Of a stretch of DNA of 64,000 nt, positions 122 through 31,076 are shown piece after piece. Source of the stretch: Mytilus trossulus (lineage: Eukaryota); contig NC_086382.1 of NCBI RefSeq assembly GCF_036588685.1, positions 38,564,001-38,628,000 of the forward strand, in the 5' to 3' direction. The notes beneath the pieces were generated by a model. It searched no databases, was not told the DNA's origin, and worked only from the letters and a program-made list of their open reading frames with translations. The translations under genes were made by a program, and so were the position numbers. How positions within the stretch are numbered: position 1 is the first letter of the stretch; every line of letters starts with the position of its first letter.

Positions 122-230
122 CTGACTTTCCGACACCTTGTATTCCAAGAATGAGAATATTAACATCCTTATGACTGTGTTTTTGAATTTTTTCCTCAGT
201 TGCAGGTTTTGGATCTTTATGAAACGGCAT
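122..230 (-). CDS. First coding exon of a Ras-superfamily small GTPase (RERG/RASL11/RASL12-like), copy A
   Basis: ATG at 230; encodes MPFHKDPKPATEEKIQKHSHKDVNILILGIQGVGKS (hydrophobic beta1 plus GxxxxGKS P-loop). Phase-1 donor TCAG|GTAGGG at 121, an intron position seen in RERG/RASL/RIT-type genes. Remaining exons presumably lie left of the window. Confidence 0.8.
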
Positions 231-290
231 ATCACAATTTGTTTTTGAATTATTCCTATGCGTTATCAATATAACACAATAAGTATTCGT

Positions 291-336
291 AACTGAATTA
301 CAAGAAATTATAGACAAGTAAATTACATTGCGTCAT
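291..336 (-). promoter_or_regulatory. Putative proximal promoter of GTPase exon copy A (TGACGCAA CRE/CEBP-like site and TCAGTT Inr-like motif)
   Basis: ttgcgtca at 328-335 is perfectly kept in all three copies (12819-12826, 31192-31199) although flanks diverge. A minus-strand CAGT lies 60-70 nt upstream of each ATG; it could instead be a splice acceptor. Confidence 0.4.
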
Positions 337-1177
337 CTCATGTATCGAACTCTGCTAAATTGCTGGAATAAATGACTAGCTGTTGTTTAATCAATTTGGT
401 GGCTGTACAAACAGAACGGTTGATGTATCTTATTATAACAGTAACAATATTATATTAGTAGATCGCAAAGGCTGTATGTTATGCACATGTGAACATTACA
501 CAGACGCATTACATATATACTAAACGTTTTCCTCAACCTCAAGATCTTAAGATCTCTAATTAGACAACTGTTTTCTTGAGGATAGAAAGGTATGATAGGT
601 TTATATATATGATCTTCTCTTGTTAATTATTGTGAAACTGATACCTTTCAATCATTCCCATTACGAAAAAATATCTATGTATAAATAAACAAAATATTTA
701 CTAAAGTGTTTCTTCCCTCACATATTTCTTATTAATTAATTCATACAATTATTAATGAAATGTAATAATATTCCGTTTGAAATTTATTCCAACTAATTGC
801 TACTACGGTAGAAGCAAAGAGTTACTTCGTGTGTTAGAGTAGTTTTGGATCAATTATACAACTATAAAGTATATGAAGTTTCTTAACATCAATAACTTTT
901 TCACATGCGTAATTCTAACTGCTTCTTCTAACCAATTGCGCTACTTAAACAGAAACGCTCTGTTGGCATTTTCCATTGAAGCTTCTAATAAAGATAACAG
1001 CATATGATAGATCAATTAAAAAGGTTATAAAATAAAATATCACAAGAACAACGAACATAAATGTACTGATAGATAAGACATAAATTAAACTCTGCATGAA
1101 CCTTAGTTTTCTCTCGTCTTATACCTATTATAAGTTGTTTACTCCTTTTTGCGAATGTTTTAATACGAAATCACTTG

Positions 1178-1378
1178 ATCTACTTACCCTTCCGGAGCAC
1201 CTGAGATCACCCCTAGTTTTTGGTGGGGTTCGTGTTGTTTATTCTTTAGTTTTCTATGTTGTGTCATGTGTACTTTTGTTTTTCTGTTTGTCTTTTTCAT
1301 TTTTAGTCATGGCGTTGTCAGTTTGTTTTAGATTTATGAGTTTGACTGTCCCTTTGGAATCTTTCGTCCCTCTTTTTT
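1178..1378 (+). mobile_element. 3' tail fragment of a Penelope-like element (family C)
   Basis: cttacccttccggagcacctgagatcacc...ctttcgtccctcttt. The same tail follows an RT C-terminal FYGRHHELV peptide at 42480. It is absent from the paralogous site near 13645. Confidence 0.65.
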
Positions 1379-2183
1379 TAAACGATCACAACTTCCTGCG
1401 GTTTCGTTGTCGCGTTACTCATATTCATACAAAACAATATATACTTATTGAATCTAATTTTATAAATCTTAAACGATAAAACATACTGTTAGCTCTTCAA
1501 CCATGTCGGTTCTTTTACATCCTTTGGATTTTGAAATTCAGCTTGGAGCATGTCGGATGATAGTAAATGGTAGATCTTGGAAAACACTCCGGATGCATAA
1601 CATTTATACACTATTTTCAATTTGTTAAGTACATGCATTACAATTTTTTCTTATTCTTTGTACCTATAAAATACTTTCATCTATCTTTCATCTATTTTCT
1701 CAATTTGTGCAAACTATATTTGTATAGTTTTTGTATTGTCTTATGTGGTTGAGATACACATGTGGGTACAACAATTAAAAGATACAAAAACTAATTTAAA
1801 AGACAATAAACAAGTTTTGAACATACGTATTTAAAGAATTACAGTAACAGAACAGAAAAGTCAACTTTAATAGCACAAAGTTGTTACCGTTTATCCTTAA
1901 CAATGGAATAAAAATTGGGATTTTCGTCCATAATGTATTAGAATTTTTAATGATTGCAATAGGGGGATTTCCATTATCAATGGTTATCTTGACATGAATA
2001 TCTATAATGTGGTCAATTTTATAAATTTCCTGTTTACAAAACTTTGAATTTTTCGAAAAACTAAGGATTTTCTTATCCCAGGCATAGATAACCTTAGCCG
2101 TATTTGGCACAACTTTTTGGAATTTTGGATCCTCAATGCTCTTCAACTTTGTACTTGTTTGGTTTTATAAATAGTTTGATTTG

Positions 2184-2228
2184 AGCGTCACTGATGAGTC
2201 TTGTGTAGACGAAACGCGCGTCTGGCGT
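2184..2228 (+). ncRNA. Type I hammerhead ribozyme (minimal helix III, palindromic GCGC loop)
   Basis: cgtca-CTGATGA-gtct tgtgt agac-GAAAC gcgc GTC-tggcg: helix I cgtca/tggcg, helix II gtct/agac; predicted cleavage after C2222. Confidence 0.9.
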
Positions 2229-2537: not shown

Positions 2538-2582
2538 AGCGTCACTGATGAGTCTTGTGTAGACGAAACGCCCGTCTGGCGT
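2538..2582 (+). ncRNA. Type I hammerhead ribozyme (loop III GCCC variant)
   Basis: Same core; loop III reads gccc instead of gcgc; predicted cleavage after C2576. Confidence 0.8.
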
Positions 2583-4852: not shown

Positions 4853-5846
4853 AATTGCTGAAGTAGAATTACTATAATTTATTTATACGTATAAGTATAA
4901 TATGACATAGCAACCTGCTATACGGCACATACGAAAAAAACATTAAAAGAACATAAGATCACCTCCAGTATAAAACCTTAGTTTTAAATGCCCCTTTGCC
5001 ATCGTTCAAAGCTTTCTTACTAACTGGAAAATGAAAAAAAAAATGAAATTGAATTAATCAATTAACAATTTTTTCATATACAAATTCAGAGAATAATGAA
5101 CAAGATCTTTCAATACGGTACATGGATTTTCTTCTTTTCATTGATTTGAATTCATTGGTAAACAGCTATCGCCCTTAATATTATCTTCACAATCACAGAA
5201 CGTTTTATGAGACTACAATGAAACATAGTAATACGATTATTAGAAGTTTAAGAATAAGAAAGATAAGAACTAAAACAAATTAATCGTTTATTACATTAAT
5301 CATAGATGATGAACACTGTGTCAGTGCGCTAACACACACGGAAATATCTCGGCTATAACAACTGAGGTAATGAAGATGACCTTAACAAAAATATTTTGTT
5401 CGGCGGTCACGACACTGCGGACAATGCCCTCGATTACAAAGATGCATCAGCAGTAAAATTCACTCATGATTGACAAAAATAGCATATACAATCTGCTTTT
5501 ATTGATTGATTGTTAACCACTAATTGTTGCAGGGGAATTTGCTTGTTGTTGAAGACCGTTTGTTTACCCTTACATGTCTTTTACTTATATATAGTTTCAA
5601 TGTGTCTTAATAAATTTGACGTATTATTCACGTCCATCTACTTTGACCCTACATTCGTTAAGACTATTATGCTATCATAGTCGAATTTAATTCTGAAATA
5701 GAATCAATAATCCATGACGCAGTCGCTAATAGAGTTGTATATATATACTATTATAAGTACGTCTGAGCAAATGACAACTCTACAACAGATTTATCCGTCG
5801 GATCACCAACAGTGACGTTGATACACGGCTGTGTACATAAGATATA

Positions 5847-7023
5847 TGTCGTGTACAAGTTGTGATTTTGTACCTCGTACATGTTATAACCTGTACAAAA
5901 TATTGTTTAAAAATGGTTTCAACTTGAACAAAATAAAAAAAAAGGAATATGTTTCTATTATCGCAATAGACTTTATAAGCCTCATTAATATTTTCATAAT
6001 TTTTTTATTATTCCTTCATGTTTGTGTGTTTTGTCCTTTTTTGATACATTTAATGTCCAGGGGTCGGTATTTCGAAGCATTTCTTAGACCTGTCATACGA
6101 TATTTTTTATGATCCTCTTATGACTATCTATAGACATATCTTTATTTGATGAATTATAGTTGTGAGTGTCCACTTTGAAGGCAATAGTAAAATACTTTTA
6201 TTCTAGTTGACACTAAAAGGCATAACAGGATGGCAAGGATAGATGTGTCTACAAATAAAATTGGGAATGGAAATGGGGTATGTGTCTACAAGACAACAAC
6301 CCGCCCATGGAGCAGACACCATCCAAAGGCCACAATACATGCTTTCAAAGTAGATGATATATATTTAAAACATCAAAATGAAATTCACCTTGTGCAATGA
6401 TCTTATAGTTTGTAAAAAAAAAAAATTGAGTTATAAATTTACATAAGTCATGCTGAAGGCTAAAAATGTTGAAGAGTAGTCCCAAAGATATTGATAATGA
6501 AGCGTGGTAATGGAAACTATTTCAGCTCTCTCTTGCTTTTACAGAGTAAGCATATAAGACATTGTTTTAGTCTTTGCGTGCTATAAAACGAGAGGGAGGA
6601 GTTTGACTCAAAATTATTAGGCATTGTTCTTAAATTTTTTGGAAAAATTTAGTTACTTCTATCTTATGTAATTGTCATTGAGGAAATGCAAGCTTGTAGT
6701 AAATAGTGTCACACTTATTTAAGCCATGATGGACTGCATAAAACATACAATTACACGAACACACATTTTGCCAACAAAGTCAAGAAACATATTTCTTAAG
6801 CTTTGTGATCACTGTCCTCTACAGAAAAAAAACACGGTCTGGCCTATTTATTGTTGTTCTTTATGCATTGGTGAATTTAAATGTATATTTTATTTCAGTA
6901 AGATTTATCTTAAATTTTATAAGTTAAAATCATTTTAGAGCAATACTTTGTACAGGTTATAACATGTATAAGGTACTTTTCTACATGTGATAAACTGTAC
7001 AAAATCGCAACTTGTACACGACA
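5847..7023 (+). mobile_element. Ginger-like non-autonomous DNA transposon with a relic HHCC integrase zinc-binding domain
   Basis: Long TIRs TGTCGTGTACAAGTTG.GATTTTGTAC with TGT...ACA termini and tata/cata flanks. Internal frameshifted CHTYLSHDGLHKTY...FLKLCDHC at ~6707-6817. Confidence 0.55.
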
Positions 7024-7032
7024 CATATACAA

Positions 7033-7198
7033 CTAGTCTAAACATTCACCCAACAATGTTAAATTTGTAAATTTGCTTTCGCAAATTTTGTGTTCTTCCC
7101 TCGCCGGGATTCGAACCCATGCTACTGAGATATCGTGACACCAAATCGCCTGCACTGTAGACGTCCCGGTTGGTCGTCTGGTTTAGCGGGACGGCTAA
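7033..7198 (-). mobile_element. tRNA-derived SINE
   Basis: B-box GGTTCGAATCC on the minus strand (~7108-7118) followed by a non-tRNA tail; no full cloverleaf. Confidence 0.65.
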
Positions 7199-7266
7199 TT
7201 CAGGTAGAAATAAGGTTTTGTTTTGACATGATGTAGTTATCAAAAGTACCAGGATTATAATTTTAT

Positions 7267-7311
7267 ACACCAGACGCGCGTTTCGTCTACATAAGACTCA
7301 TCAGTGACGCT
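7267..7311 (-). ncRNA. Type I hammerhead ribozyme
   Basis: Minus strand: agcgtca CTGATGA gtct tatgt agac GAAAC gcgc GTC tggtgt. Confidence 0.85.
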
Positions 7312-7620
7312 CAGAACAAAATAGTTAAAAAGCCAAATAAATACAAAGTTGAAGATCATTGAGGACCCAAAATTCCTAAAAATTGTGCCAAATACGGCTA
7401 AGGTAATCTACTCCTGGGGTAAGAAATTCCTTAGTATTTCGAAAAATTCAAAGTTTTGTAAACAGAAAATTTAAAAAATGACCATATAATTGATATTCAT
7501 GTCAACACCGAAGTGCTGACTACTGGGCTGGTGATACCCTCGGGGACGAAACGACCACCAGCAGTGGCATCGACCCAGTGGTGTTAATAGTTATCAAAAG
7601 TACCAGGATTATAATTTTAT

Positions 7621-7665
7621 ACGCCAGACGCGCGTTTCGTCAACATAAGACTCATCAGTGACGCT
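7621..7665 (-). ncRNA. Type I hammerhead ribozyme
   Basis: Minus strand: agcgtca CTGATGA gtc ttatgtt gac GAAAC gcgc GTC tggcgt. Confidence 0.82.
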
Positions 7666-9194
7666 CAGATCAAAATAGTTATAAAGCCAAATAAATACAA
7701 AGTTGAAGAGCATTGAGGACCCAAAATTCCAAAAAAAGTTGTGCCAAATACGGCTAAGGTAATCTACTCCTGGGGTAAGAAATTCCTTAGTATTTCGAAA
7801 AAAAACACCGAAGTGCTGACTACTGTGCTGGTGATATCCGTTATTTGAACTCAAAACATGCACGTTGGAGGAGCAAGGGGCTCGGGAAATACCCCCTTCA
7901 ATCCACCATTTCTACATTTGAATATGCGCTTATATGCAATTAAAATTACTTAGTCCTTTTTTTAAAATCAGGTAGAAATGAGGTTTTGTTTTTACATGAT
8001 GTGACGCACGTTATTTGAACTCAAAACATGCACGTGAGAGGAGCAAGGGTTCGGAAATTATTCCCTTCAATTCAGCCTTTTCTTCATATGAAAATGCCTG
8101 TACCATGTCAGGAATATGACAGTTGTTTTCCATTCGTTTGATGTGTCTTCTCATTTTATTTTGCCATGTGATTAAGAACTTTCCGATTGAATTTTCCTCG
8201 GAGTTCATTATTTTTTCGATTTTACTTTTCACTGCAAGGGATTATTCGTGGATGAGAAGAAGAATGCATGAAACCCATTAAACGACACATGAACATTTAT
8301 TCACGGTGGTCATGTAACAGCTAAGACTATTTTTCGACAGGAGGAAGAAAATGGACTGAAATATTATGTCATTATGTTAAAGAAAACTGAGAATATTTTA
8401 AAGTAACGATATTTTCGTAATATCAATTATCGTCAGTTTATTTGTAAAATTATTGTTCTAAAAGGCCTGTTTTTATAAATGGAAAAACAGATGTGCTTAT
8501 AACAATATTTAGAAAAAGCAGAATTAATATCCGGGAAGATGTTCGGATGAAGAAAACAGAAACAGTTAACTTGATGTCGTGAGTGTATAATAACCTGAAA
8601 AAAATTGTTATCGTAATATTTTTATGGTTTTGGGTCAGGGATGTTACAAATATCCTAATTAACTTACACATTTACTAAAAAAATTAGAAAAGAGAAGTAA
8701 AGGTTTGTATGTTTTGCAATATCTGGGATTTCAGTAATCAAGTTTCCTGTTTTGTTGTAAAAGCTGAATTTAAGTAGCTACACTATATATATATGTAAAA
8801 CCCCGACAGCGATCGTGTTGTTTTTTGAAGAAACTGGCGTTTAAAAGAATACTCATATGCTTTCACCGGTAAACTGTTCAACAGAGAGTTCGGAAATGTA
8901 ATAGTGTAAAAGCTTTATTTAGTTAGAAAGTTAGACAAAATAGAACAGAGCTAAATCAATCCTAGGCTATTTGTCTTAATCTAAATTGTTTGTTTCGCTT
9001 TTAGATTGGTAGCTACAATTTCTTCGTGGACTACAACACTACATGTAACCGTTTTCGATATACAGACTTTTACTGAATCAGTATTTTCAAGTCCAAAAAA
9101 ATGATGGATTTTTCTCGTTACTTCTCTAGCAATTCCGCTCTTAAATTTACATTCCGTATAGCAGAGTGGAAAATACAATATGTTATCATAAATA

Positions 9195-9650
9195 TAAAAT
9201 TGAGAATGGAAATAGGGAATGTGTCAAGGAGACAACAACCCGACCATAAAACAGACAACAGCAGAAGGTCGTCAGCAGGTCTTTAATGCAGCGAGAATTC
9301 CCGCACCCAGAGGCGTCCTTCAGCTGGCCCATAAACAAATATACTAGTTCAGTGATAATGAACGCCATCAATATTAACGCCAAAATATACAATCTTTAAT
9401 GACCTGACAACAGTATCGTGACTATATCCCTTCTTAATAAGTCTATTTAAAGGTTTTGTTAGCTTTTGAGGTGAATATTAACTTTTTTTGTGCTTTATAA
9501 GGAATATTTCCATAAAACAATGAATGTGAATAACCTGAAAGTATAAGAAGTCTGCATGTTGATCTATAATTAAGAATAATGTCCTTATACCGATGATAAA
9601 ATTACAAAATGTTTTGACTAGTTTGTGATATCGAAAACCTAGATGGCTAT
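9195..9650 (-). mobile_element. Family A repeat (internally deleted long form)
   Basis: Matches 56666-57455 with an internal deletion near 9368. Confidence 0.65.
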
Positions 9651-11195
9651 AAACGAAGACCGCGAGTAGATGGTTCGTTTTTTAAAATTTTTGGACAATA
9701 AGTTTTAGTTTATAAACAAATATTAAAAAAATCCTTTATTAGTTTCAAAATGTATATGTCGAGACATTTTGAAGTTAGTGCTGTTCCTTAAACAAAGACA
9801 GAAGAAAAAAGAACGCAAACCCTCGTACACTAACACCAAAAGAACTTATAACAGCAACACATATTCTTTAACTGTGGAACATATGTCTACCATTTATACA
9901 CATACGCAAGAAAAAAGGACTGACTCATGTATGTTTTAAAACTTAACTGTTCGTTTGAAAAAAAAAGTGTCAGCATATTTTTTTAAACCAGATATAGGTT
10001 ACTTTGTCTATTAATTGCTTTGTTCCGTTAGTACATCTTGTTTAAGCAATACGATTGCAAGTTATGAAGATGGACAATTTTAGTTTTGAATGAGAGTTGA
10101 CATAGTGTTTGTCTAATAGCTGTGCTAAAAGTACCCACAGAAATGTTTTCTTAACAACAGCATATATCGTTTATGATGTACACTTTCTTCTTATCTTGAG
10201 ATCATGGATCTTCCTTAAATTAGAAGCAAATTAATTCTTAAATTCTATAATTTAATGTATGCTGAAGATTCGTTACGTAACATTGTCTGTGTATTAGTCA
10301 AATTAGTTTTAGGTGCCGCAGCTGTTCTTTGTAAAAAAAATAAAAGTAGGATAAACAAAGGTATACAGAAAAGCTTTTGATCAAACACTTTTCTATATGA
10401 TTTTGCTAATAATTTTCACATTTATTAGATAATGATATGATTTTATGTAAATTTGGGGTAAAAAAAACAGTAATAATGTTATTCATGTGACGTTGATAAG
10501 CAAGTTCAATAAATAAATACCTTAAAGACCTTGATTAATACATATTACGACTGTGCTACACCATTAAACTTACACTTTTTGCCATGTTAATATTTCTGCT
10601 AAATGCATAAGTGTATGAAAGAAGCCAACAAAATAAACATTTCTATTAACCATAATTAAAAGCTTTTCATTATAGAATGCATGTGAATTAGTTATCAAGG
10701 AAGTCACTCGGTCACAATTATTGTCTTGTCAGATGTTTAGGTAGAACAGAGTATTTAAAGGTAAAAGTGATAAACGTGTTTCCACAATATATATGCAAAT
10801 ATAATGTACAAAACGTTTTAGCTTGAAAAACAAACCCAACCCCAGTGTATAAAAGAATTTATTTTCGCATTTTTAGTAGTGAAAATATGAAAATGAACGC
10901 GTTATCGATTACTTTGTAAAATCCAAGTCACGTTAGCTGTCTGGTAGATAAAAGAAGCATTTGTTTATATTTCATCTATATTTATGCAACATGCTTCTTG
11001 ATTATTATCCTTTTTATATATAATTTACCCATGTAGTAAGAAATTATTTTATGTACAATTATTTATTTATCTGTCTTTCCTTACAACTACCGTTGCAGCA
11101 TATATGTATACATTGATCGTTTTTAAATCAGTTTATCTTCAAATGCGGTTGAACGGCAAAACCTGCTTCTCAACAACCAGTCTGAACCAGGTTAA

Positions 11196-11935
11196 AGGGC
11201 ATATGATACAGATACAGGGGAGGTAATGACGTTGTTATCGTAAATTGTTATTTTCGAGACGTCAAACAGTGACTTATCGGGAAAGAAATGCAGTCTTCGA
11301 CTGATTTTATCATTCAAACTGATCTAACTTGTAAACGAGTTCATAGACCCCCCCTTTTTTTTTTTAAATGATATGTGGTTTGATTACGTATGGAGATTAT
11401 GTGTACCAATTTTCATGAAAAATTCAATAGTGTAAATTTTGTAAATTGGATAAATATTCAGCAAAATAGACGTTTTTTTTTCTTCATTCATGAACATTGG
11501 CTATAGCTGATGTGAGAAATGGTTTAAATTAAATCAAACTTTTAACAATTTAACATTTTTTTAATACATGTAATGGCAACATGGCTCACAAATTAACTGG
11601 GTTACATAATTTCATGAAGGCTGTCAAAATTTTTGCAAATAAAAAAGCAGGTGTATTTAAATCAAAACAAGCATGTGCACCTAAAAATGATTCATATTTT
11701 GCATGCATCTGGTTATTGGTTAAGATTACGTTTTGTGATCGTATTTATGGAGTGCAGCATAGTCCAATGATCGATACGAAAACCAAAAAGAAACAAGATA
11801 ATCATTTAACTAAATTTAGCATCTTGTTTTTATATTTTTTCTTGTACAATTTTTTTTTTATGAAATAAATACAAGTAATGGATAACTTAAATGCTATATA
11901 GTATCGCATGCCAACTCATCTCCCCTGCTGTATCT
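11196..11935. mobile_element. TTAA-flanked non-autonomous DNA transposon (Kolobok-like)
   Basis: TTAA at 11192-11195 and 11936-11939; imperfect TIRs AG...gatacag...caggggag / ctcccctg.ctgtatCT. Confidence 0.55.
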
Positions 11936-12236
11936 TTAAAAGGGAAGTTTATTTTTTGTATGTGTAAAATATAGAAGGATTTTCAAGAACCTAAGACTTA
12001 CTAAACTGGGCTTTTAATTTGTTAAAAATAGGAGACATATTATATATATTCAAGCCACAATTGGGTTGTTTTTGCTCTTGATGCCCATAATTTGGTAGTT
12101 TTCCTGCTCGACTAGTAGCACCTGTCAAACTATTGTATGTATTGGTATTGACGAAGATATATTCTCAAAAGAAATATTAATTTAAGTTCTACGTAATTGA
12201 CTATCGGGAGAAATACAAAGTTTCTGAAAATAAGCA

Positions 12237-12410
12237 TAAAATTGAGAAAGGAAATGGGAAATGTGTCAAAGCGACAACAACCCGACCATAGAGCAGACAA
12301 CATCCGAAGGCCGCCAATGGGTCGTCAATGCAGCAAGAAATTCCCGCACTCGGCGGCGTCCTTCAGCTAGCCCCAAAACAAATATATTTACAAGTTCAGT
12401 GATAATGAAC
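12237..12410 (-). mobile_element. Family A repeat
   Basis: ataaaattgagaaaggaaatggg...agttcagtgataatgaac. Confidence 0.65.
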
Positions 12411-12602
12411 TTAGTAGAATTGATTGTCTCTAGAAAGAGTTAAAATCCAGATTGATGCATATGTCAAGAGTGTCAGTGTTAGGGTCCAAAATCGACTTAT
12501 TAAGGAGAACACCGAATTGATAAATACACTTTTCCAAAACGATCTTACGCATACATTTATATATGAGATTTAATAAAAGTTTGAATAAATGAAATTTCCT
12601 AC

Positions 12603-12717
12603 CTGACTTTCCGACACCTTGTATTCCAAGAATAAGAATATTAACATCCTTATGACTGTGCTTTTGAATTTTTTCCTCAGTTGCAGGTTTTGGATCTTTG
12701 TGAAACGGCAAAGGCAT
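12603..12717 (-). CDS. First coding exon of Ras-superfamily small GTPase, copy B
   Basis: MPLPFHKDPKPATEEKIQKHSHKDVNILILGIQGVGKS; donor TCAG|GTAGGA. Versus copy A: three synonymous changes and an in-frame 6-nt duplication. Confidence 0.75.
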
Positions 12718-16356: not shown

Positions 16357-16470
16357 TGGATTTCTTTTCAAAAGGCAAATGGATTTCTTTTCAAAAGGAA
16401 AATGAATTTCTTTTCAAAAGGAAAATGGATTTCTTTTCAAAAGGAAAATGGATTTCTTCAAAATGAAAAT
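16357..16470. repeat. 22-bp minisatellite (~5 copies)
   Basis: aatggatttcttttcaaaagga repeated; the paralogous site near 24414 has a single copy. Confidence 0.85.
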
Positions 16471-16941
16471 GTCGATAATGTGGAAACATAATCCAGGAAT
16501 TTTTAGTTGCAAAAAATAGTCTATATTCGAGTCACTATATTGTTTTTTTGCTCTTAATGCCAGTTATTTGGTGGCATTTCTGCTCGAATACCAACCGCGG
16601 AAGGGTTGTAAAACCAGTCAAAGTCGTTTAAAACTTCAATTTTTCGTGCTTGACTAGTATTACTAGTAAAAAAATGTGTTATGCTTTCAGTATTGACGTA
16701 CCAAACCGAATCATGTACTTAATAGTTATAGCATGTAGAATTCTCAAAATAATTTGAAAGCATTACACTTATTAGATACTGTATACGACAACCATAGACA
16801 CAGTATTCTAGTTTGAACAGGCATAGGTATGGATGTATTGGGTTATTATTTTGTTAAGATTTCATGTTCTAGTCATATTGTTTGTTATATTGTTTGTTAT
16901 TGATGTTAGACACGTTAAAGTGTTTTTCATCATAATTGCAG

Positions 16942-18310
16942 ATTTGTCTATAGAAAAACTGCGAGAGTTAGAGCACGATTTAAGGGCATCAGAAAGCGCA
17001 GTTTTTGATTGGAAATGCCACATAGTGAGATTGATCGGCCAAGATTCTTGCAGAAAAGAGAAATTTTTAAACCTTAAGAATGGTGAAGTTATGGTTGTTA
17101 TGGACTCGGCAATACAATCCCCCCCTTTATTGTTCAGACAAAAAAACAAAGCGATTGGTTTAGACAGAAGGGGCTGAATTCGCATGTAACTGTTTATGTT
17201 TTTAAAGATTATGAAAACCAGCCTAGGTTAAGATTTTGTGTGACATATATATATTTCCATTTTTATCATATTGAGTATCTTCACAGAAATTTAAAATAGC
17301 TATTCAGTTTAAAAAAACCGATGTTACATTATTTTTTTAAAACTGAAAATCAGATTATAATGTAACCAGCTTAGTATGTGTCTATTTCTTTGTGTTTACT
17401 TCATAAACAAAGGCCATTATTACTCTCAACTTCATCTCTTTTTGTTTTTTCTTCTTCAGTCAGTACATTCTATGTTAATGTTGGAATATTCTTTTTTAAA
17501 TCTAGTTGTATATATAAAATCAAATATTCATAAAATGATTTTTTCTTAATTTATTAACCACTTACACATACAAGTAGAAAACGTTGCTTCTTTCAGATGA
17601 TTCTTTGCATCTTTCATGTGGATTATACAATATGATTATTTGTGACCAGGATGTTTCAGGCAAAACTAACATGAGAAAAATAAAAGACAGAAAACAAGAT
17701 CTGACAACAAATAATAATAGAAAAGACTAACAGGAGACTCAGAAAGTAAAATGCATTCTCTAAAAATCAAGTCTTTTATATCTCCTCATGTTCCCCAAAC
17801 ACTCTGCAACGTGTAAAGCCCTGTCGATTTTGATCTTGACCTTATCATCAATGCACGAGCTCAGAAATGAATTATGAAACTATTAAAGAGGAAAACCTTG
17901 CTTTGAATAACTAAGGTACTGTTCCGAAGTATGATCCGTTGGACCTCCCTAGGGGAGATCGACAAACACGAGAACCAAAAAAGCACATTTAAATCGTTAC
18001 TGTTTTATAAATATTTAATCAAAAGTTTAATTCAAAATATTAAATCATGTTTCTTTGATATCAGCATCGTTCATATAATGTATGATCATGTTATAGATGG
18101 TGTTGAATAGGATTGGCGCAGAATAGCATGTATGCTGTAACATGTACTATTAGTTTTGAAAAAACAACAATCTACTGTGACAACAGCAGTTTGGGAAAGT
18201 GACAATGCAGGGTGTTATCACTGCTGTAATTTATGGCATGCTGTTCCAGCAATATCAGAACAAACAGGTATGTTTATTATACTTAGGTAGTGTACAAGTC
18301 ACTTACACAC
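16942..18310 (+). pseudogene. Degenerate intron-containing DDE transposase, Sola-type (probably Sola3)
   Basis: Exon 16942-17226 encodes WKCHIVR..QD...VVMDSAI..P..FR/KQSDWFRQKGLNSHVTV (frameshifted). Exon ~18065-18267 encodes HVIDGVE*DW...SDNAGCYH. AG/GT boundaries present; stops and frameshifts. Superfamily assigned from motif recall. Confidence 0.6.
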
Positions 18311-19599
18311 TGAGTATCTATCAGTGTGACTGTCTGTCAATTTACTTTGATAGCCAAGCTCCGACTAAGCAGATTGATGGATATTGATGAATTTTGCACT
18401 GATGTAATACACAACATAAGGATTATGACAGAAGATATAGTATGCAGATAAGATATAAACCATAAAATATTAGAACATGAAAAAGCGCAACTCCTCTCTA
18501 GAAGGATTTCTATGATAACTTACTCAAAGCAAGTATCTTATACATTATATTCCTAAAACGAATTTCAAGGAAAATTTACTCAAAACAACGTGCATAAATA
18601 AATATCACCTTGTTCGATAAGGTACAAGTTTTTTTTTTAAAAGACTTTGACCATGGAATCAAATATTCATGAATATAAACAGGGCATATATGAAAATACA
18701 AAAAAAAAATTACAGACCACAAAGTCTAACCTTTCAAAAAAAAAAATTACCTTGAAAATAACACAATAATACGGTAATTATAGATGAAGTCGAATCAAGT
18801 ATATTAAAAAAAACTAATGATTTTCTTACCCCAGGAGTAGATTACCTTAGACGTATTTTTGGGATTTTCGGGTCCTCAAAGTTCAAGTTTTATTGTTGAT
18901 ATCTTGTTATCAGATAATTTGCAATTTGAAGTTTGAAATTTTTTTTGATAACAGTCAATTACGTAGGTCTTTCTGTTTTTTGTTTTGCGATAAGAGTTTC
19001 ACTTAAGTCATTTGCAATTGAAGTCAAAATAATAGAATGATGTAAAATTTCATCAATATTATATAATTCTATATTTAATAGTTTAAGTTAAATTTTAAGT
19101 CGAATTGAATGAACATTCGTAAAAAAGAGTTAACGTCTTTAGTATGGCAGTACGCATATGAACACTGATTTATTTAAAACTGTATCACATTTAATTATAA
19201 GCACAATGACATTTGCAAAAGTTAAAATATTTGGCTTTAATGAGTCGATTTTTTCTTTTTATATACGGCAATCACTGCATTACATAAATTCAGTTTGTTG
19301 TTTTATACTGGGTGCTACATGTAGTCTGTATCTCTTTATTTTTCAATTCAAATGCTTACATTACACAGACGTATTTCTTTTACTTAAAACGTTTAGCCGA
19401 AAATCAAGATGTCTAATTAGACAACTGTTTTCTGGAGGAAGGAAAGATATTATCGTAACACTGATGTATTAATGAATTATATATCCTATATTCTTGTTAA
19501 TAATTGTGATACTGATAACATTCATATAGCGAGTTATTATAACTCCTATACAAAACTAATATTTCTATATATAAATAAACTAAATATTCACTCCACTAA

Positions 19600-19760
19600 T
19601 ATAAATAAAGGCAACAGTAGTATACCGCTGTTCAAAACTCATAAATCCATGGACAAAAAAGAAAAATCGGGGTAACAAACCAAAACCGAGGGAAACGCAT
19701 TAAATATAAGAGGAGAACAACGACACAACACAGAAACGGACCAAGCATCAGACGAAACAA
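19600..19760 (-). mobile_element. Family E PLE-type 3' end
   Basis: aataaaggcaacagtagtataccgctgttc...; reverse complement of the ends at ~22130 and ~52095. Confidence 0.55.
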
Positions 19761-20347
19761 TAATATAAGTGTTTCTTCCTTCCACTCTCTCAAAATTATA
19801 TTTATTTGTTATCAAGAGAATGAGATTAAAATCGATTATATTCAGTTTGAAATGTTCAAATTAATAACAACTACGATTGTAACAAACATTTTGTTCTCGT
19901 ATACGAGTAATTTGAGGATAAATTGTACAACCATTAAGTATTAAGAGGTTCTTTACATCCATAATTTTCAAACAAAAATCCAAACTGCTTCCGCTAACCA
20001 AGTGCTATTAAAACATAGAAACGCTCTGTGGGAATTTCCTATTGACGCGTCATATAAAAATTGAGGCAGAGTTAAGCTCAATTAAAAAATATGCAGAAGT
20101 AAAATATAACAAGAACAACGTATATGAATTTACTGATAAACAATTAATGTAGTAAACTCTCCATGAACCTTAGTTACCTGTTTTTATACTTATTAAATGT
20201 TGTTGACTACTTTTCAAAATGTTTATACAAACTGTTGAAATAATCACTACTTCCTGTTGTATCTAATGTGCGTTAATAATTTTCATATAAAACAACATGT
20301 ATAGTATCGAATTTTAAAGTTTATATTCACCGAGGAAATAGACTTAA

Positions 20348-20914
20348 GGGGGCTCGCGGGTCAAAATCATTTTTTTAAATTTAATATAGGATTTCTCTAT
20401 ATTTTTCTATAATTGAACTTTATTTTATACTTACTAGAAAAATAAAATAAAAAAATGGGGTCATCGTTCATTCACGCTCACAATCTGCCCTCGACAGAAG
20501 CATACATTTTTGTTAATGTCCTTTTTTTCTGTTGAATTAATAGGAGAAATAGCGGTAATCTCGAAATAAAAAAAGAACTAAATTACAGAAATCACTTAAA
20601 TTTTACAATTATTTAGTTTTATATGTACAGCATTTTCGAAAACAGCAATAAAAAATAAAGGTCACCGACGAGTTAAAAAAGAAATTTCAAATTTTATACA
20701 AAACAAATGGCATTTTTGCACCAAAGGGGATAATTTGGAGCTTTTTCAATGATATATACATTTTAAAAATCACCTGCGGCCAACACGGATTGGTTTTGTG
20801 GAATGATTTTTGTACCATATGATAAAGTCACAACTACTTAAGGTAATGAATAAAATTTGTATTGAAAAATTAATGTTTATTTTTTTTCTTAAAATCTTAT
20901 ACCCGCGAGTCACC
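20348..20914. mobile_element. TTAA-specific MITE (Kolobok-like)
   Basis: TIRs GGGGGCTCGCGGGT / ACCCGCGAGTCACC; TTAA duplicated at 20344-47 and 20915-18; single TTAA at the paralogous empty site 13755-58. Confidence 0.8.
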
Positions 20915-21099
20915 TTAAGATATTCTTCTGTGTCTGTTTATATACATACATCATTGGCTATTAAAAGTTAACTTTGCGCCCTGCCGAGGACAGTTCATTG
21001 TAGATTCTGAAAAACGCTCCTAATTAGTAGTTTGTGGACAAAACGCGTGTCTGGCGTAAATATAAAATTTTAATCCTGGTATCTTTGATGAATTTATCT

Positions 21100-22133
21100 T
21101 AGTCAATCCTTATTCCATCTTATTCATTCAAATGTGACGTCACTTTTCATTTTTTGATGATCTGTTTTACAGATTTAAATGTGACGTCATTTTTTTTTTT
21201 ATCATTTTTTACAATTTCAAATATAACGTCACTTGGCGGTGAGGTTTTGTCTATTTGTTGTACATTTTGGCGAGTTAATAAGTATTTCGGTTGGTCCTTG
21301 TAATTAGTTAATACTTCAGTTTTATCATATATCTTTTGTATAGTCATTTTATAAAATTTACTGTTTGCAAAAGTATAAATCATTCTAAATAAAAGGGATG
21401 TTCTGGTACCTAACAGGAAACCCTGGCCGTACTTGGCACAACGTTTTTAAACGTTTAGTCCTCGATGCTGTTCAACTCTGTACTTGTTTCGGCTTTCAAA
21501 TTTGTGTATCTGGGTGTCACTTGTAAGTCTTGTGTGGACAAAATGCAGTTGTGGCGTATTGTAATTTTAACGTGTTTCCTTTTGTTAGCTATTATTCATG
21601 TGTTTCTTTGTCAATTGTTTTGTCCTATTTATTTATATTGTAGTCATGTAATGTTGTGTTGTCATTTCAATGTTATATTTCACATGGCCATAAAAGAGGG
21701 AGCTTTGCCATGCCACAAAACCAGGTTCAACCCACCATTTGTTCCTTTAAAAATGTCCTGTACCAAGTCAGGAATATGGCCATTGTTATATTATAGCTCG
21801 TTTCTGTGTGTGTTACATTTTAACGTTGTGTTTCCGTTGTGTCGTTTGTGTTCTCTTATTTTTTTTTAGAGTGAATTCATATTACTATAAGACGTGCCAC
21901 GGTACTTATCTATCCCAGTTTCATGTATTTGGTTTTGATTTTATATTCTCATATGATTTTGTCTAATGCTTAGTCCGTTTCTGTGTGTGTTACATTTTAA
22001 TGTTTTGTCGTTGTTTTCCTCTTGTATTTAATGAGTGTCCCTCAGTTTTAGTGTGTTACCCCGATTTTGTTTTTTGTCCATGGATTTATGAGTTTTGAAT
22101 ACTTACTAGCGATATACTACTGTTACCTTTATT
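21100..22133 (+). mobile_element. PLE-associated element: degenerate retrozyme-like/hammerhead module followed by a family E tail
   Basis: 21340-21560 resembles the 354-nt unit with a decayed HHR (gtcacttgtaagtcttgtgtggacaaaatgc). The tail carries cctgtaccaagtcagga (21757) and a duplicated segment. Confidence 0.55.
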
Positions 22134-25126
22134 AATGATACATAATATTTACAAAGTTTTGATATTTTCATTTTATTGAGATGTGCAGAATAATTTGCGT
22201 ATTAAATTGTGATTTTTAATATTTTGTCTTACAGAAGTGTTGATTCGATTGCCACTGATCCCTAGACGGCATCTACTAAACAAATATTTTTTTAATTTTT
22301 TGTCTAATGTGTACATGCGAATACAGAACTAATTTATGATATATTATTTCTGCAAATTAAAACAAAAACACTTGTTAATCAAATCTATGAATGGTAGGTG
22401 ATTAGCTTAATCGTGAACGATCAATTTGATTGCTATACAAAAAGGAGGACTGGTGTATCTAATTATATCAGCAACAGCATTATATAAGATAAAAGAAGTA
22501 AACAAAGGTTAAATGATGTATAAAATTCACGCAATTACGTCACAAAAACGTATTACTTGTACTATAAACGTTTGTTACATGTCAGATTTACTTAAATTTC
22601 AAACAAACGAGCGTTTTCTTACGCAGTAAAACTGATAACACGCTTTATGTTATTTTTCTACCTGTTAAATATTGTAATACAAAACGGATTTTTAAAATTT
22701 TTTTTATTCTCACATCATCACATGTTTTATCCATTTACTTTTGTAATAATGACAATGAATAACAAAAAGTAATTATACAATGTTTGAAGATTCAATTATT
22801 TGAAATTATTGCATCTGTATTTCAGTGGGATCACAATTGTTGGAAAACATACTTAACAGCTGTAAGTATAATAAAGAAAAAATGTAAGTATGATTAAGAA
22901 ACAATTAAGTGTAATAAATAAAAAAGTAATTAGAATTAAAAAAAGGTAAGCAGAATTAAAAAAAAGTAAGTAGAATTAAAAAAAAGTCATAAATAAATAG
23001 GAGATTAGTGATGCACAACAAAAGAGGGGATATTGTCATATTCTCAATACACTCCTCTCCTTCAATGCTTCATTCAATGTAATTATAAATCGAGTAATGC
23101 TTGTACAGTTAAACAACCTGTAGTCACCTTTTGGCAAATGACGCCACTCACATTGATAAAACATGTGAAAAATCACTTACAGCCATCACTTATAATTCAT
23201 TTATATGTATCAGTAGAATATGATTATGATCAGCATAATTATGAAAGGAAAACGTCAACATCTAAGTATTTCATGCGGTAACCAGGTACGTAACTTTCAG
23301 TCTTTCTTTTACAACCAGACTAATCCAGTCGTAATATTTCGATTCGTCATCGAACGCTACATTAAAGTAATGATGACATTGAATGTTCAGGGGCACAGAA
23401 TCAATCCATTTATCCCTATGCCGAACATTTATTCACAGTTATTTCAAATATACACAAAAAGTTGAAAAAATCATTTAATACAGACTTCAAATTTTTTGTT
23501 ACAATTTTCCATTATAATTATATAGATTTGCATTTTACTAAAAAGATATTCTATCTTACTTGAAAGAACGTCGGAACTTAATGTCGCTTAATACGTATCA
23601 ACATCCACTATGATTAGGAAAGTATTTTTCAAACGTGTTTTAAAAAAGCATTAAAAAAAGCTACACAATTTAATTAGGATAATCACATGCTAAATATGTA
23701 TATATTACTGCAACATTTGTTCTTTCTATAGAATGGTTTTTCTACATAAAATGTAAATACAAAAAAATATTATTCGAAAGAAAATGTCAGCTTCTTCGAA
23801 TATGTTTCTTTTTTTGCCGAAATGAAACGAAATTCTGACACTGATCGTTCAGTTTATGAATTAAAAAAACAATTATGCAACCATGTCAAACCAGGTTTTA
23901 CTGGGATCAATTCTGTAAGGGTTGAACACTTAGATTAGTATATATATTGCATTTATATATAAAACGTTATCCGGAGGTGGCGAGAGAAATGGTTTCAATT
24001 ACTTTAAAAATGTAAACAGTTTAGCAATTATTTCAATGACGTAATAGTAAAGTGCTCATAAATTAGTTTGGTTAGATAATTTTATGAAGGCTGTCAAATT
24101 GTATTCAAATAAATATCCATGTATAAAAAATCAGGTGTATTCAATGATATGGAAATAATTGAAAAATTGCATTTGCATCTGGAAATGAATCATATTTTGC
24201 ACGAATCTGGTTATGGATTAAGATTTGATTTTGATTGTATGTATGGTGTTCATCATAGACCAATGATCTATTTAAAACCAAAACTAACAAAATAACGATT
24301 TTACTAAATTGATCATCTTGTTTTAATTGATAAAAATAAAACAAGTAATAGTTGACTTAGATGCTATACAGTATCGCATACAATGTCATCTCCTCTGGTG
24401 TCAAATTTTTCTGAATGAATTTTCTTTAAGAAAGGGAAGTCTATGTCTTTAATGTAGAATGTGCAAGGACAAAAGACTTCCTAATCTGGCTTTTTCAGTT
24501 GCAAGAAATATGCTATATTCACTATATTGTTTTATTTTGCTCCTAATACCGGTCATTTTGCGGAATTCCTGCTTGCTAAGTACTAGTAGGCAAAAATGTC
24601 TTATGCTTTCACTATTGACGAACAGAAATATTCCCGAAACATCAATAAGAATTCTAAAAAAAAACTTTTAAGCATGAAACGTGTTTAGTTTTCTATTGGG
24701 CAACCTTAGACGAAGTATTCGAGTTTGAACAAGCATAGGCATGCGTGTAGTGGATGATAATTCCTCATTTTTTTTGTCATATTGGTTGTTTGCTGTATCA
24801 TTATTTTTTTTAGATGTTTGTTGATCTTCCGTTCTTCATTTTTGCAAAAAAAGTTTATTACCTGTTTTAAGCTAAAACAAGGCTGACAATCTTCAACTCA
24901 TGGTATACCTTTATTTTTATGATAAACTAAACAGCATACTGCATAGGTGTTTTCATTATGATATTTAGATTAAATGGATTGGTCTTCATTACAAAAATAT
25001 CAATTTTAAAGTATATCAAAAAGTGTATTTATTTTTGTTGTTGTGATAAAACTCATAAACGACACCAGGTTTATAATTATACGACATACGCGTGTTTCTT
25101 TGAGTTCAGACTGATCAGTGGTGATC

Positions 25127-28100
25127 CCATTGAAACGTTTATTGATTTGGAAACTTACAACAGTGCACAACTCGAAAAAGTGTATTTAAATTGAAGTTTG
25201 CTATAAATGATTGCCTCTGTATCTGTATTTGTTTACTTCAAACTAGTCTTTATGTCAACACATGTACAATGCACTAAAAAGTACTTAACAGGTAGGTACT
25301 TCATTTTAGTTCATATTTTATTGTTGATATACTTTTATTAGATAAATCTAATTTAAACTTTGCATCCCTTTTTATAACAGTTAATTACGTATGTCTTTCT
25401 GCAGTCTGTTTTGTGATAAGAGTTTATATTAAATCATTTGTAATTGAATTCGAAACACTGGTGTGATGTAAAAATTTTATTACGATTACATAATTCTATA
25501 TTTAATAGTTACAGTTTAATATTTTGGAAAACATGGATTGTACGTCTGTAGAAATGGTTTACGTCTGTAGTATGGCAAATACTGTTTCATATAGGAACAC
25601 TTCGTGTATTCATACCAAAAACTATGTCACTTTGAATGATTAGCACAATTGCCTTTGCACAAGTTTAAACTATTTGGCTGTAATAAGTCTGATTTTAACA
25701 TATTATGAGTTTAATGTGCTATTTCACTTATCATTAATAATTGTCAGTGGTTGTCGTGTCTGATTTTTTTTAATTGTTATTACATATTATTAAATGATAT
25801 GAGCAAATAAGCCCTAATACGGATAAATCAGCATGTGCAATACTAAAAATGTTCCACTGTCGATATAAATCAAGATTTAATATTGCTCTTCGAACAGGGC
25901 CAATACGGAAAAAAACAGGGCCAATACAGAAAAAAGCGGAAAAAAGACGTATTAGCCCTAGGGCTAATACAGGACGTTCACTTCCGGTATTCAATTTTCT
26001 TACGCAATTACTTAACTTTGGAAGTATCGTTATGCATGAAAACATTTGTATAATATTTTTTTAAATTTAAGTCATAAAATAAACAGGTTAAATGATGTGC
26101 AATGTTTTGTAACGGCTTGAAGTTTTGAAACGGAAAAAAACAGGGCCAATACAGAAAAAAGCGGGAAAATAGCTGTATTGGCCCATGGGCTAATACGGGA
26201 CGTTCACTTCCGGTTTTTAATTCTCTTATAATCATTTAATAAAAGTGTTATGAACTGGCTGTTTCTGTATTGGCACTGGTATAGATGCCATTGAAACGTT
26301 TATTGATTTGGAAACTTACAACAGTGCACAACTCGAAAAAGTGTATTTAAATTGAAGTTTGCTATAAATGATTGCCTCTGCCTCTGTATCTGTATTTGTT
26401 TACTTCAAACTAGTCTTTATGTCAACACATGTACAATGCACTAAAAAGTACTTAACAGGTAGGTACTTCATTTTAGTTCATATTTTATTGTTGATATACT
26501 TTTATTAGATAAATCTAATTTAAACTTTGCATCCCTTTTTATAACAGTTAATTACGTATGTCTTTCTGCAGTCTGTTTTGTGATAAGAGTTTATATTAAA
26601 TCATTTGTAATTGAATTCGAAACACTGGTGTGATGTAAAAATTTTATTACGATTACATAATTCTATATTTAATAGTTACAGTTTAATATTTTGGAAAACA
26701 TGGATTGTACGTCTGTAGAAATGGTTTACGTCTGTAGTATGGCAAATACTGTTTCATATAGGAACACTTCGTGTATTCATACCAAAAACTATGTCACTTT
26801 GAATGATTAGCACAATTGCCTTTGCACAAGTTTAAACTATTTGGCTGTAATAAGTCTGATTTTAACATATTATGAGTTTAATGTGCTATTTCACTTATCA
26901 TTAATAATTGTCAGTGGTTGTCGTGTCTGATTTTTTTTAATTGTTATTACATATTATTAAATGATATGAGCAAATAAGCCCTAATACGGATAAATCAGCA
27001 TGTGCAATACTAAAAATGTTCCACTGTCGATATAAATCAAGATTTAATATTGCTCTTCGAACAGGGCCAATACGGAAAAAAACAGGGCCAATACAGAAAA
27101 AAGCGGAAAAAAGACGTATTAGCCCTAGGGCTAATACAGGACGTTCACTTCCGGTATTCAATTTTCTTACGCAATTACTTAACTTTGGAAGTATCGTTAT
27201 GCATGAAAACATTTGTATAATATTTTTTTAAATTTAAGTCATAAAATAAACAGGTTAAATGATGTGCAATGTTTTGTAACGGCTTGAAGTTTTGAAACGG
27301 AAAAAAACAGGGCCAATACAGAAAAAAGCGGGAAAATAGCTGTATTGGCCCATGGGCTAATACGGGACGTTCACTTCCGGTTTTTAATTCTCTTATAATC
27401 ATTTAATAAAAGTGTTATGAACTGGCTGTTTCTGTATTGGCACTGGTATAGATGCCATTGAAACGTTTATTGATTTGGAAACTTACAACAGTGCACAACT
27501 CGAAAAAGTGTATTTAAATTGAAGTTTGCTATAAATGATTGCCTCTGCCTCTGTATCTGTATTTGTTTACTTCAAACTAGTCTTTATGTCAACACATGTA
27601 CAATGCACTAAAAAGTACTTAACAGGTAGGTACTTCATTTTAGTTCATATTTTATTGTTGATATACTTTTATTAGATAAATCTAATTTAAACTTTGCATC
27701 CCTTTTTATAACAGTTAATTACGTATGTCTTTCTGCAGTCTGTTTTGTGATAAGAGTTTATATTAAATCATTTGTAATTGAATTCGAAACACTGGTGTGA
27801 TGTAAAAATTTTATTACGATTACATAATTCTATATTTAATAGTTACAGTTTAATATTTTGGAAAACATGGATTGTACGTCTGTAGAAATGGTTTACGTCT
27901 GTAGTATGGCAAATACTGTTTCATATAGGAACACTTCGTGTATTCATACCAAAAACTATGTCACTTTGAATGATTAGCACAATTGCCTTTGCACAAGTTT
28001 AAACTATTTGGCTGTAATAAGTCTGATTTTAACATATTATGAGTTTAATGTGCTATTTCACTTATCATTAATAATTGTCAGTGGTTGTCGTGTCTGATTT

Positions 28101-28620
28101 TTTTTAATTGTTATTACATATTATTAAATGATATGAGCAAATAAGCCCTAATACGGATAAATCAGCATGTGCAATACTAAAAATGTTCCACTGTCGATAT
28201 AAATCAAGATTTAATATTGCTCTTCGAACAGGGCCAATACGGAAAAAAACAGGGCCAATACAGAAAAAAGCGGAAAAAAGACGTATTAGCCCTAGGGCTA
28301 ATACAGGACGTTCACTTCCGGTATTCAATTTTCTTACGCAATTACTTAACTTTGGAAGTATCGTTATGCATGAAAACATTTGTATAATATTTTTTTAAAT
28401 TTAAGTCATAAAATAAACAGGTTAAATGATGTGCAATGTTTTGTAACGGCTTGAAGTTTTGAAACGGAAAAAAACAGGGCCAATACAGAAAAAAGCGGGA
28501 AAATAGCTGTATTGGCCCATGGGCTAATACGGGACGTTCACTTCCGGTTTTTAATTCTCTTATAATCATTTAATAAAAGTGTTATGAACTGGCTGTTTCT
28601 GTATTGGCACTGGTATAGAT
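25127..28620. repeat. Near-identical tandem triplication (units 1161/1167/1166 bp)
   Basis: Units start with ccattgaaacg at 25127, 26288 and 27455; identical ORF translations recur every 1167 bp. Confidence 0.95.
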
Positions 28621-28740
28621 TCTCGGTCAGCTGTATTGGCCCTCGACCCTACGGGTCTCGAGGCCAATACAGCAAACCTTGAATCTATACCAGTGCCAAT
28701 ACAGAAACAGCCAGTTAATAACACTATAATACAATTAAAA
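28102..28740. mobile_element. Palindrome-rich non-autonomous element ending in a ~145-nt hairpin
   Basis: Hairpin 28580-28725 (gtgttat.aactggctgtttctgtattggcactggtatagattc ... gaatctataccagtgccaatacagaaacagccagtt.ataacac); internal palindromes tattagccctagggctaata; short imperfect terminal IR ttttaattgt/acaattaaaa. Truncated copies start at ~25768 and ~26935. Confidence 0.55.
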
Positions 28741-28819
28741 CAGCCTTTATACTACCAAAACGGAATGTGTCATACTGGTGACGTCGTCCTGGTCATATAA
28801 ATCACGTTATCTATATTGC

Positions 28820-29212
28820 TTTTAGGCCCGTTCCAATATTTCCAATACGGACTGGCAATGAATCCTGAATTACATGTTAACATATATTGTGCATGTAATT
28901 CAAGAATCATTGCCAGTTCGTATTGAAAATATTGGCCCTTTATTTACTTCATTGCCAGTCCGTATTGGAAATATCGCCTTATATTCACATTTTATGTATG
29001 TAATACAGCTTTCAGAACAAGTCTGTTTTAAAAAAGTTGGATCATTTAATAAAAATGTTATGACCTGGTGTTTCTGTATAGGCACTGGTATAGATTCTCG
29101 GTCAGCTGTATTGGTCATTGACTCTCCGGTTATCAAGGTCAATGCAGCAAACCTTGAATATATTCCAGTGCCAATACAGAAACAGCCAGTTAATAACACT
29201 ATATTATTATTC
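28820..29212. mobile_element. Second, older member of the palindromic element family
   Basis: Diverged copy of the same terminal hairpin at ~29055-29200. Confidence 0.55.
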
Positions 29213-30967
29213 TGAATTAGTATTCTCATTTTTATTGATTTATATACTGTTATTTGAGCCTTATTAACGATACGAAATGTGCTTTGTTCTTTGTAAAACG
29301 CCTTGCGAAGACTGGTACATCAACATCGTTGTCCGTTTGTCTTTCCTTTGATATGAGTATTTTGTACCTATGCGCCAACCAGAAAATAAAACATTGTTTG
29401 TACCTCCAAAAAAGTTATGCAACATTTTTCCCGTTATATGTTTTTTGACCCATTATACCATGATATTGATTTGAATGGAGTATGTAATGTTGAGGAAGAA
29501 AACATACGATATTTGAATATATCTGATAAGGTTTGATTTTTCTTAGTTCTCATTGATTGAAAAGATCACTTGTTTTCAAATCTCCATTAGATTTTTTTCA
29601 CTATTTTACATTTTGACGTTACCTTTTTAGAATGATATCGACTCCCTGTTAATAAAGACAGTAACATCGATTTAATTCCATTTTCAAACATAGTTACCTC
29701 ATGTCGATGTCATTTCAAACTGTCACTTTTAACATATGTAACATATACGTTACATACTTTCTAGTAGACCTTTTCAACAACTCTCGATACCGACTATTGA
29801 CACCTACAGTTTACAGGAGAAATGGAGGGGTCGTATTAAAAATTTAAATCATTCATGTATAACATGCATGTAACATAAAAAAGTACTATATTATCGATTA
29901 AAACGATTTTTATTAAGGACAAAAAGGTATATTTTGCTCATAGCATTTGTGTGTTTTCTGTGTTGTCTCCTTTCTTTCATTCATTACTTATATTTATAAG
30001 TTAAAAAAAAGTATAAAGCATCCCACTTTAAAAAAAGACAAACTTTATTTACATTCGGAGTATTGCATTTTCGGTAATATGATTATTAATATCAATCGTT
30101 GTGCGATTTTTTTTTATGGACGACTGCTTTCCATGCCAACAGTCTTAAACTCGTTTGGAATGTTGTTTTATGACTTTACATTTTAGCATCCCCATAGTAA
30201 CAATATTACAAATAGCTGTGGCGGATCCATGATTTGTCATTCAGTGTGTGTTTGGGAGGGGGGACTGACTGCCTAAGAGGGGCATAGTCCAGTCATGCTT
30301 CGGTCATATCCTATATAGTCAATCAAAATTTTCATACCAATGGCCATTTTAGAAAAAATGGTGGGTTGAAGCTGTATTTGTGGCATGCCAAACCTCCCGC
30401 TTTTATGACAATGTTAAAATAACATTAAAATGACAACATTACATGACAGGACTAAAATACAAATAAATGGGAGAACATTTAGGACAGAGAAACACACGAA
30501 TAATAGCTAACAAAAGATAACAGGTTTAAAATCTAATAGGTCTGACGTGTGTTACGTCCACAGTCTTGACAAGAGAAATCAATTAAAAAAAAAGCTTTGG
30601 GGAGACGCATTCCAACGAGTTATAACATATTCTGAAAGAGATATAGAACATCCTGCTTTACTAGCAGCACGATTTATCTCATTATGGTCAAGTTTCAATT
30701 TGGTTCAATATAATGCATATGTTGAATTCAGAATCCTTCCATACTTCCATCAATTTTGCATTATTAAAATATAAGGTTTGATTGTATTGTTATAGGAGTT
30801 ACCTAAATTGCCGATGTCTTTTTCGATTTGTTTCGATCTAATATCGACATATTTAAAATGAAAGATAATTGTATAATGAACGCGTCATCCCAAAACAATG
30901 TTAACCATTGATTTGTATTAGGGCAAAGATCAATCATCAAATAGTTTAAACAGTTGGAATTTCTTAC

Positions 30968-31076
30968 CTGACTTTCCGACACCTTGGATTCCAAGAATGA
31001 GAATATTAAAATCCTTATGACTGTGTTTTTGAATTTTTTCCTCAGTTGCTGGTTTTGGATCTTTATGGAACGGCAT
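30968..31076 (-). CDS. First coding exon of Ras-superfamily small GTPase, copy C
   Basis: MPFHKDPKPATEEKIQKHSHKDFNILILGIQGVGKS; donor TCAG|GTAAGA. Versus copy A: three synonymous changes and one V>F. Missed by the ORF track. Confidence 0.78.

Follow-up and report, generated by a model that had tools for sequence, protein, structure and literature searches.

The closest described counterpart of the locus studied here is PEP1 of Arabis alpina, in which exon 1 was duplicated in tandem together with parts of the promoter and of intron 1; both copies are spliced to one exon 2 and give a near-identical protein, the two copies have mapped starts and different expression, and a copy was lost in one accession (PMC3527215). 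In UGT1, GCNT2, UGT2A and the clustered protocadherins, tandem homologous first exons share one frame and a set of constant exons and evolve by birth and death, with little conversion in UGT1 (PMC1885805). Chelicerate sDscam genes have tandem two- or four-exon immunoglobulin cassettes at the 5' end with promoters, a constant region, lineage expansion and at least 40 copies in one gene, and downstream cassettes can also be used (PMC4835542). The present analysis concerns a 64,000-nt stretch of the Mytilus trossulus genome (hereafter the window; G000:C10:38564001-38628000, genome size 1.3 Gb), in which copies of the first exon of a Ras-like small GTPase gene lie in tandem, and which was examined together with a further 50 kb to its left and 20 kb to its right (134 kb in total). 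Coordinates are those of the window, negative ones lying to its left (contig position = 38564000 + coordinate), and features are on the minus strand unless stated otherwise. We consider it probable that this is one RERG-like gene with four copies of exon 1, each with its upstream DNA, and one set of exons 2-4, to which copy B is spliced and the other three likely are; the copies would likely have promoters of their own, and a nearly unchanged protein of 226-228 residues would come under several separately evolving controls.

The layout fits the likeness to protocadherin and UGT1 loci proposed in an earlier reading of the window, made from its letters alone (the sequence-only reading), and PEP1 is closer still, because its copies likewise encode the same protein. 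Like PEP1, the mussel gene shows a partial tandem duplication of exon 1 before one exon 2 and a near-identical protein; unlike PEP1, with its two copies in one plant species, it has four intact and two exonless units, a flank divergence of 14-30% and several Mytilus records. Its array has the properties of variable first exons, being homologous and in one frame and phase before one constant exon set, with a non-adjacent exon (B) spliced in a run guessed to be RNA. In the vertebrate clusters each variable exon is large and encodes a diversified domain, whereas those of the mussel consist of 36-38 nearly unchanged codons (leader, first strand and P-loop); the diversification typical of the UGT1, protocadherin and sDscam clusters is not seen here, the proportion of differing replacement sites (pN) among the four copies being 0-0.018. 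The mussel cassettes also differ from those of sDscam in being single exons without real protein diversity. Searches of the open literature listed no description of the mussel locus or gene structure; the isoforms are already in automatic annotation.

The array consists of six tandem units in the order Z, A, B, D, C and E, extending from -10.7 kb to +42.4 kb (dispersed repeats masked), every one of them made up of intron-1 blocks followed by upstream blocks. Three intact copies of exon 1 lie in the window, as the sequence-only reading had seen: A (122..230, 109 nt), B (12603..12717, 115 nt) and C (30968..31076, 109 nt), with ATG, open frame, the P-loop GIQGVGKS and GT donors at 121, 12602 and 30967. 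Its total of three was too low, as a fourth intact copy, Z (109 nt; G000:C10:38558479-38558587, -5521..-5413), is located 5.4 kb left of the window. All four are 109-115 nt long, in phase 1 and followed by a GT donor. The peptide of A is the same as that of Z and forms the start of the database protein P0020; that of B begins MPLPF and starts P0017, P0021 and P0023, and that of C, which carries V23F, is the start of P0026. B differs from A by 3 synonymous changes and 6 additional bases, and C by 3 synonymous changes and the V>F replacement, in agreement with the counts made earlier. Copy C is the most diverged and, at a distance of 41.8 kb, the farthest from exon 2; in the alignment with Rit1 a tyrosine stands opposite V23, so the phenylalanine of C is likely tolerated.

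Copy A is followed by the start of its intron (1..121, the gene going on left of the window) and preceded by an upstream region (231..1175) homologous in all four intact units. Unit B has an intron-1 part (4918..12602) and an upstream region (12718..15026); unit C has an intron-1 part (23516..30967) and a 5' untranslated region (UTR) with upstream region (31077..33367). Within the intron of unit C lies a 1167-bp triple tandem repeat (25123-28620), whose 99.4-99.7% identity marks it as very recent. Units D (15250..23341) and E (36209..42407, no single strand assigned, with 36209-37400 inverted) are made of intron-1 and distal upstream blocks, exon 1 and the upstream DNA next to it being absent: intron homology runs to ~19253 in D and to 40232 in E, and upstream homology starts from 19334 and 40979, respectively. 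Local alignment yielded no clear exon-1 remnants in D and E: 31 of the 32 scores were within shuffle range, and the remaining one exceeded the highest of 30 shuffles by 1 point. Informative sites in the upstream DNA join Z with A (23, versus 10 and 8), C being the most distant. Candidate hidden exons (a DTAG-like match at 11934 and the blocks 11514-11931, 15921-16342, 23984-24401 and 36266-36614) were rejected; they are intron-1 copies, and when read in three frames on the gene strand they contain stops and no more Ras motifs.

A common gene body left of the window, as anticipated by the sequence-only reading, was found there in single copy: exon 2 with the shared acceptor (57 nt; 38553111-38553167, -10889..-10833), exon 3 (74 nt; 38547571-38547644, -16429..-16356; L002:3571-3644) and the coding part of exon 4 (146 codons and a stop; 38546192-38546632, -17808..-17368). 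The exon phases are compatible, and exons 2-4 when translated give the 190-residue body of P0020. Searches with these exons by blastn and tblastn returned one real match for each in the 134 kb, all in the single set left of the window and none between the copies, where the earlier reading had likewise found no such exons. Homology of unit B to the true intron 1 ends 158 bp before exon 2; this being the longest intron copy, no unit carries exon 2. When the genome was searched with P0020, at least 35 matches were obtained, of which one covers the body at 99%, one is exon 3, four are the exon-1 copies and the remaining 29 are family members (25-44% identical), and no second gene body was found within the 134 kb or among the genome matches listed. 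Ordinary tandem paralogues with bodies of their own are thereby refuted unless those bodies are missing from the assembly. An assembly artefact is contradicted by the absence of N in the 134 kb, by other records with the same isoform pattern, and by the 14-30% divergence of the units, which is far above what is expected for alleles; we find either explanation scarcely credible.

The exons are under purifying selection, as had been proposed. Flanking bins differ by 5-44% and the exons by 1.8-6.4%, which bears out the earlier remark that the flanks are the more diverged. In all six exon pairs the proportion of differing synonymous sites (pS, 0.09-0.28) is compatible with the flank divergence of 0.13-0.32 (P 0.06-0.50), and the low pN has P values of 1e-5 to 5e-13 under the flank rate. 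Synonymous divergence like that of the flanks together with few replacements points to purifying selection and not to recent conversion, with the reservation that short conversion tracts could easily go unnoticed with ~21 synonymous sites per pair; wholesale recent conversion is unlikely since it would have erased the synonymous differences that persist.

Twenty-one runs, guessed to be RNA by type and stored as contigs, were found, and 4/21 were compared over 29900-32300; the figures given are among the contigs listed, and contig depths were not used for ranking the copies. Contig 6 of run X1 (654 nt) fits 30968-31064 except for 5 letters that are not those of C, one of which (at 31026) is found in B only; the loose end that begins at the donor is identical to the first bases of exon 2 (30/30). 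The B-only letter and these 30 bases mean that the donor of B is joined to exon 2 over a distance of 23 kb, with A and Z passed over; the second loose end in X1 is B 5' sequence. Contig 30 of run X3 (382 nt) has no differences from C over 82 nt, its fit stops at the donor (30968) and 300 further nt follow. Splicing of the copies to a shared exon 2, as claimed by the sequence-only reading, is thus seen in a contig for B, while C leaves the genome at its donor and A and Z are joined in database gene models. The outcomes named beforehand as contrary to that reading (downstream Ras exons after B or C, no B or C transcripts, recent conversion) did not turn up.

These data also bear on the idea that the nearest copy alone works and that the others are relics, alike by gene conversion or recent duplication. 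One exon site joins A with C against the flank order, and an unspliced C contig is present in X1, as relics might show; synonymous sites diverged like the flanks, the spliced B-type contig, which already contradicts this idea for B, and a B-type first-exon peptide annotated in three Mytilus entries outside this genome make it very improbable. The array is real and selected, and it is at least partly expressed.

Upstream regions differ by 14-30% between units, with many indels. A (T/A)CAGT motif, which contains an AG, is found 66-73 nt before each ATG (5' base at 296 in A, as TCAGTT; at 12787 in B, as ACAGTT; at 31149 in C, as TCAGTG). In addition, ATGACGCAA occurs four times in the 134 kb, once per intact unit and ~105-123 nt before the ATG, TGACGCAA standing at 335 in A, 12826 in B and 31199 in C; we would liken ATGACGCAA to a bZIP site. 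C-type contigs match the genome up to their last letter, at 31154 in X2 and at 31146 in X3, around TCAGTG, a weak hint of a start site of C near 31146-31154, and we take this motif to resemble an initiator. Upstream of the four exons no dispersed repeat lies nearer than 946-2438 bp (there are 37 such blocks in 54.8 kb), which is suggestive only. The upstream regions of the copies are regarded here as putative promoters. A nine-codon upstream reading frame (31088-31117, minus strand) is present in the 5' UTR of C, starting 41 nt before the main ATG, and is absent from A and B.

Several points weigh against the reading that we favor. The 300 nt past the donor of C in contig 30 of X3 lack a listed sequence, and a partner in exon 2 is seen for B only; no A- or Z-type contigs were among the contigs listed from the four runs. 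Run X1 has low cover over 24/30 bins besides its unspliced C contig, so it also holds DNA or pre-mRNA. When the four copies are compared, no more than about half of the upstream 950 bp is identical, a divergence close to that of the intron blocks, and the common TGACGCAA motif could survive by chance: at this level of conservation one stretch of nine conserved columns per alignment would be expected, as a rough estimate, and ATGACGCAA is no proof. Database isoforms are gene models, and a 78.5-Mb Mytilus record used below equals the contig under study in length and is therefore not independent of it. Contigs cannot map starts, and it is we who infer a start site for each copy and a different regulation. 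Finally, the B 5' contig in X1 extends for at least 255 letters (30 visible), so that an upstream exon for B is possible.

This extension speaks for another reading, in which the copies are mutually exclusive internal exons and a non-coding first exon, not seen here, precedes them at a greater distance; the AG inside the (T/A)CAGT motif speaks for it too. Two C-type contigs fit the genome fully with no loose end, one of them reading through this AG to 31154, and the duplicated units retain at least 1.1 kb of upstream DNA; internal exons are on this evidence unlikely. Run X11 has no cover on exon C, which says nothing on expression.

The main rival accepts the same architecture and holds that it is kept for dosage, the promoters firing together and adding up with no difference in pattern. 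The near-identical peptides, the two short motifs that recur at comparable distances in each of the four units, and whole-gene paralogues in Dreissena (see below), which suggest a pull to more copies, are all in its favor, set against upstream regions that differ by 14-30% with many indels; besides, the listed spliced contig is B-type in X1 and C-type in X3, a hint only, as contigs cannot show absence or level. We consider dosage possible, though on balance doubtful.

If the copies are instead separately regulated, as we prefer, the units would have arisen via repeated partial tandem duplication, and their number would have risen and fallen over time, D and E representing losses. Each copy would be a genuine first exon, having a donor but using no acceptor; a transcript from a far copy would remove the nearer copies as intron, its cap-proximal donor joining exon 2, and the choice of promoter would set the isoform. 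At protocadherin-type loci the cap-proximal donor is joined to the constant exon in this manner, nearer copies being removed as intron. The copies would have been retained because their promoters differ in place or time of firing. Such a gene has duplicated its regulatory DNA but not its protein, with several likely promoters standing before one body; synonymous marks distinguish the transcripts, and dosage and divided expression can thus be told apart from RNA sequencing data without the usual confounding effect of protein divergence between paralogues.

For the other Mytilus records and Mya the evidence consists of protein entries, and lists of these would not reveal identical copies; the comparison covered 15 of the 26 proteins in the Mytilus cluster. 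Different first-exon peptides on one identical body are carried by 4/4 listed isoforms in M. edulis RefSeq and by 5/5 isoforms in a 91.4-Mb Mytilus record; the 78.5-Mb record has two isoforms (2/2), with the Z/A peptide and the C peptide on one identical body, and the two accessions of a 42.6-Mb record do not differ in sequence. First-exon peptides of Mytilus are 78-100% identical among themselves. In Mya arenaria, isoforms X1-X4 (P0092, P0093, P0094 and P0096) share an identical body of 192 residues, and each begins with a first-exon peptide of its own (4/4; identity 69-87%). X4 has the look of a mosaic between X2 and X1, and a separate paralogue exists besides. Peptides of Mytilus and Mya are 31-53% identical to each other. 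Several paralogues of the orthologue, whole or partial, are found in a single Dreissena polymorpha record (P0062, P0097-P0101), where their locus numbers are nearly consecutive. Oyster proteins (15 of 45) bear no isoform labels, and their 5 N-termini differ by few residues across 12 bodies, in a species- or allele-like manner, while Haliotis isoforms vary internally and not at the start.

In a tree of 34 proteins (named molluscs and two further close relatives) all 13 Mytilus rows fall into a single clade (97/95), which is placed with the rows of oysters, pearl oysters and scallops (90/87), and those of Mya join other clams (100/99), the copies of Mytilus and Mya grouping by lineage. The simplest reading of these sequences is that the arrays of Mytilus and Mya likely arose separately; a less simple one would be an ancient array whose units turned over continually and which was lost in other lineages. 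The design as such is already known (PEP1, UGT1, protocadherins, sDscam), and its likely recurrence at one orthologous gene is the interesting part. A comparative test is offered by the likely separate origin in Mya and by the copy sets, which differ from one Mytilus record to another; with four to six cassettes, turnover in mussels and a likely parallel array in Mya, the gene is a good test case.

Regarding the protein, the product of exon 4 is 98% identical to a Mytilus edulis entry, the closest solved structure is RERG (2atv, E 5.5e-30), followed by Rit1 and RASL12, and Pfam gives a Ras match (E 1e-30); the G1 GxxxxGKS and G4 NKxD motifs are present. The gene is predicted to encode a RERG-like Ras-family small GTPase, its vertebrate relationship being taken from the ranking of best hits, and orthologues are labelled RERG-like or RASL11-like in databases. 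Compared with the RERG/RASL11/RASL12 group, RERG is the best structure match, but the G3 motif departs from the canonical DxxG: it reads DTAW, not DTAG, in 13/13 Mytilus rows and in the oyster and pearl-oyster rows, the clam rows having DTxG. The protein is thus atypical for the Ras family at G3, and DTAW may change switch II or GTP handling. The C-terminus, WRSRTST(M/L/V/F) (end of exon 4, L002:2192-2220), is kept in most molluscan orthologues, with no CAAX box; we presume that it resembles a PDZ-binding end and a basophilic kinase site.

Other features of the region are repeats and a neighbouring gene. A 354-bp tandem repeat family occupies 1989-3327 and 7234-7802, with dispersed copies elsewhere in the region, and dispersed repeats are located at the Z/A and A/B unit junctions (L001:5752-6074 and window 4684-4858). 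Broken frames at 52620-53282 (plus strand) and 38806-39445 (minus strand), for which Pfam gave no match with any of the four pieces searched, are by eye presumably retroelement and Tc1-type transposase remnants. A short-period tandem repeat of ~37 bp lies at 48534-48868 of the window. Upstream of the array, a neighbouring gene (58166-62096, minus strand) contains LDL-receptor class A exons, three of the four tested matching PF00057.

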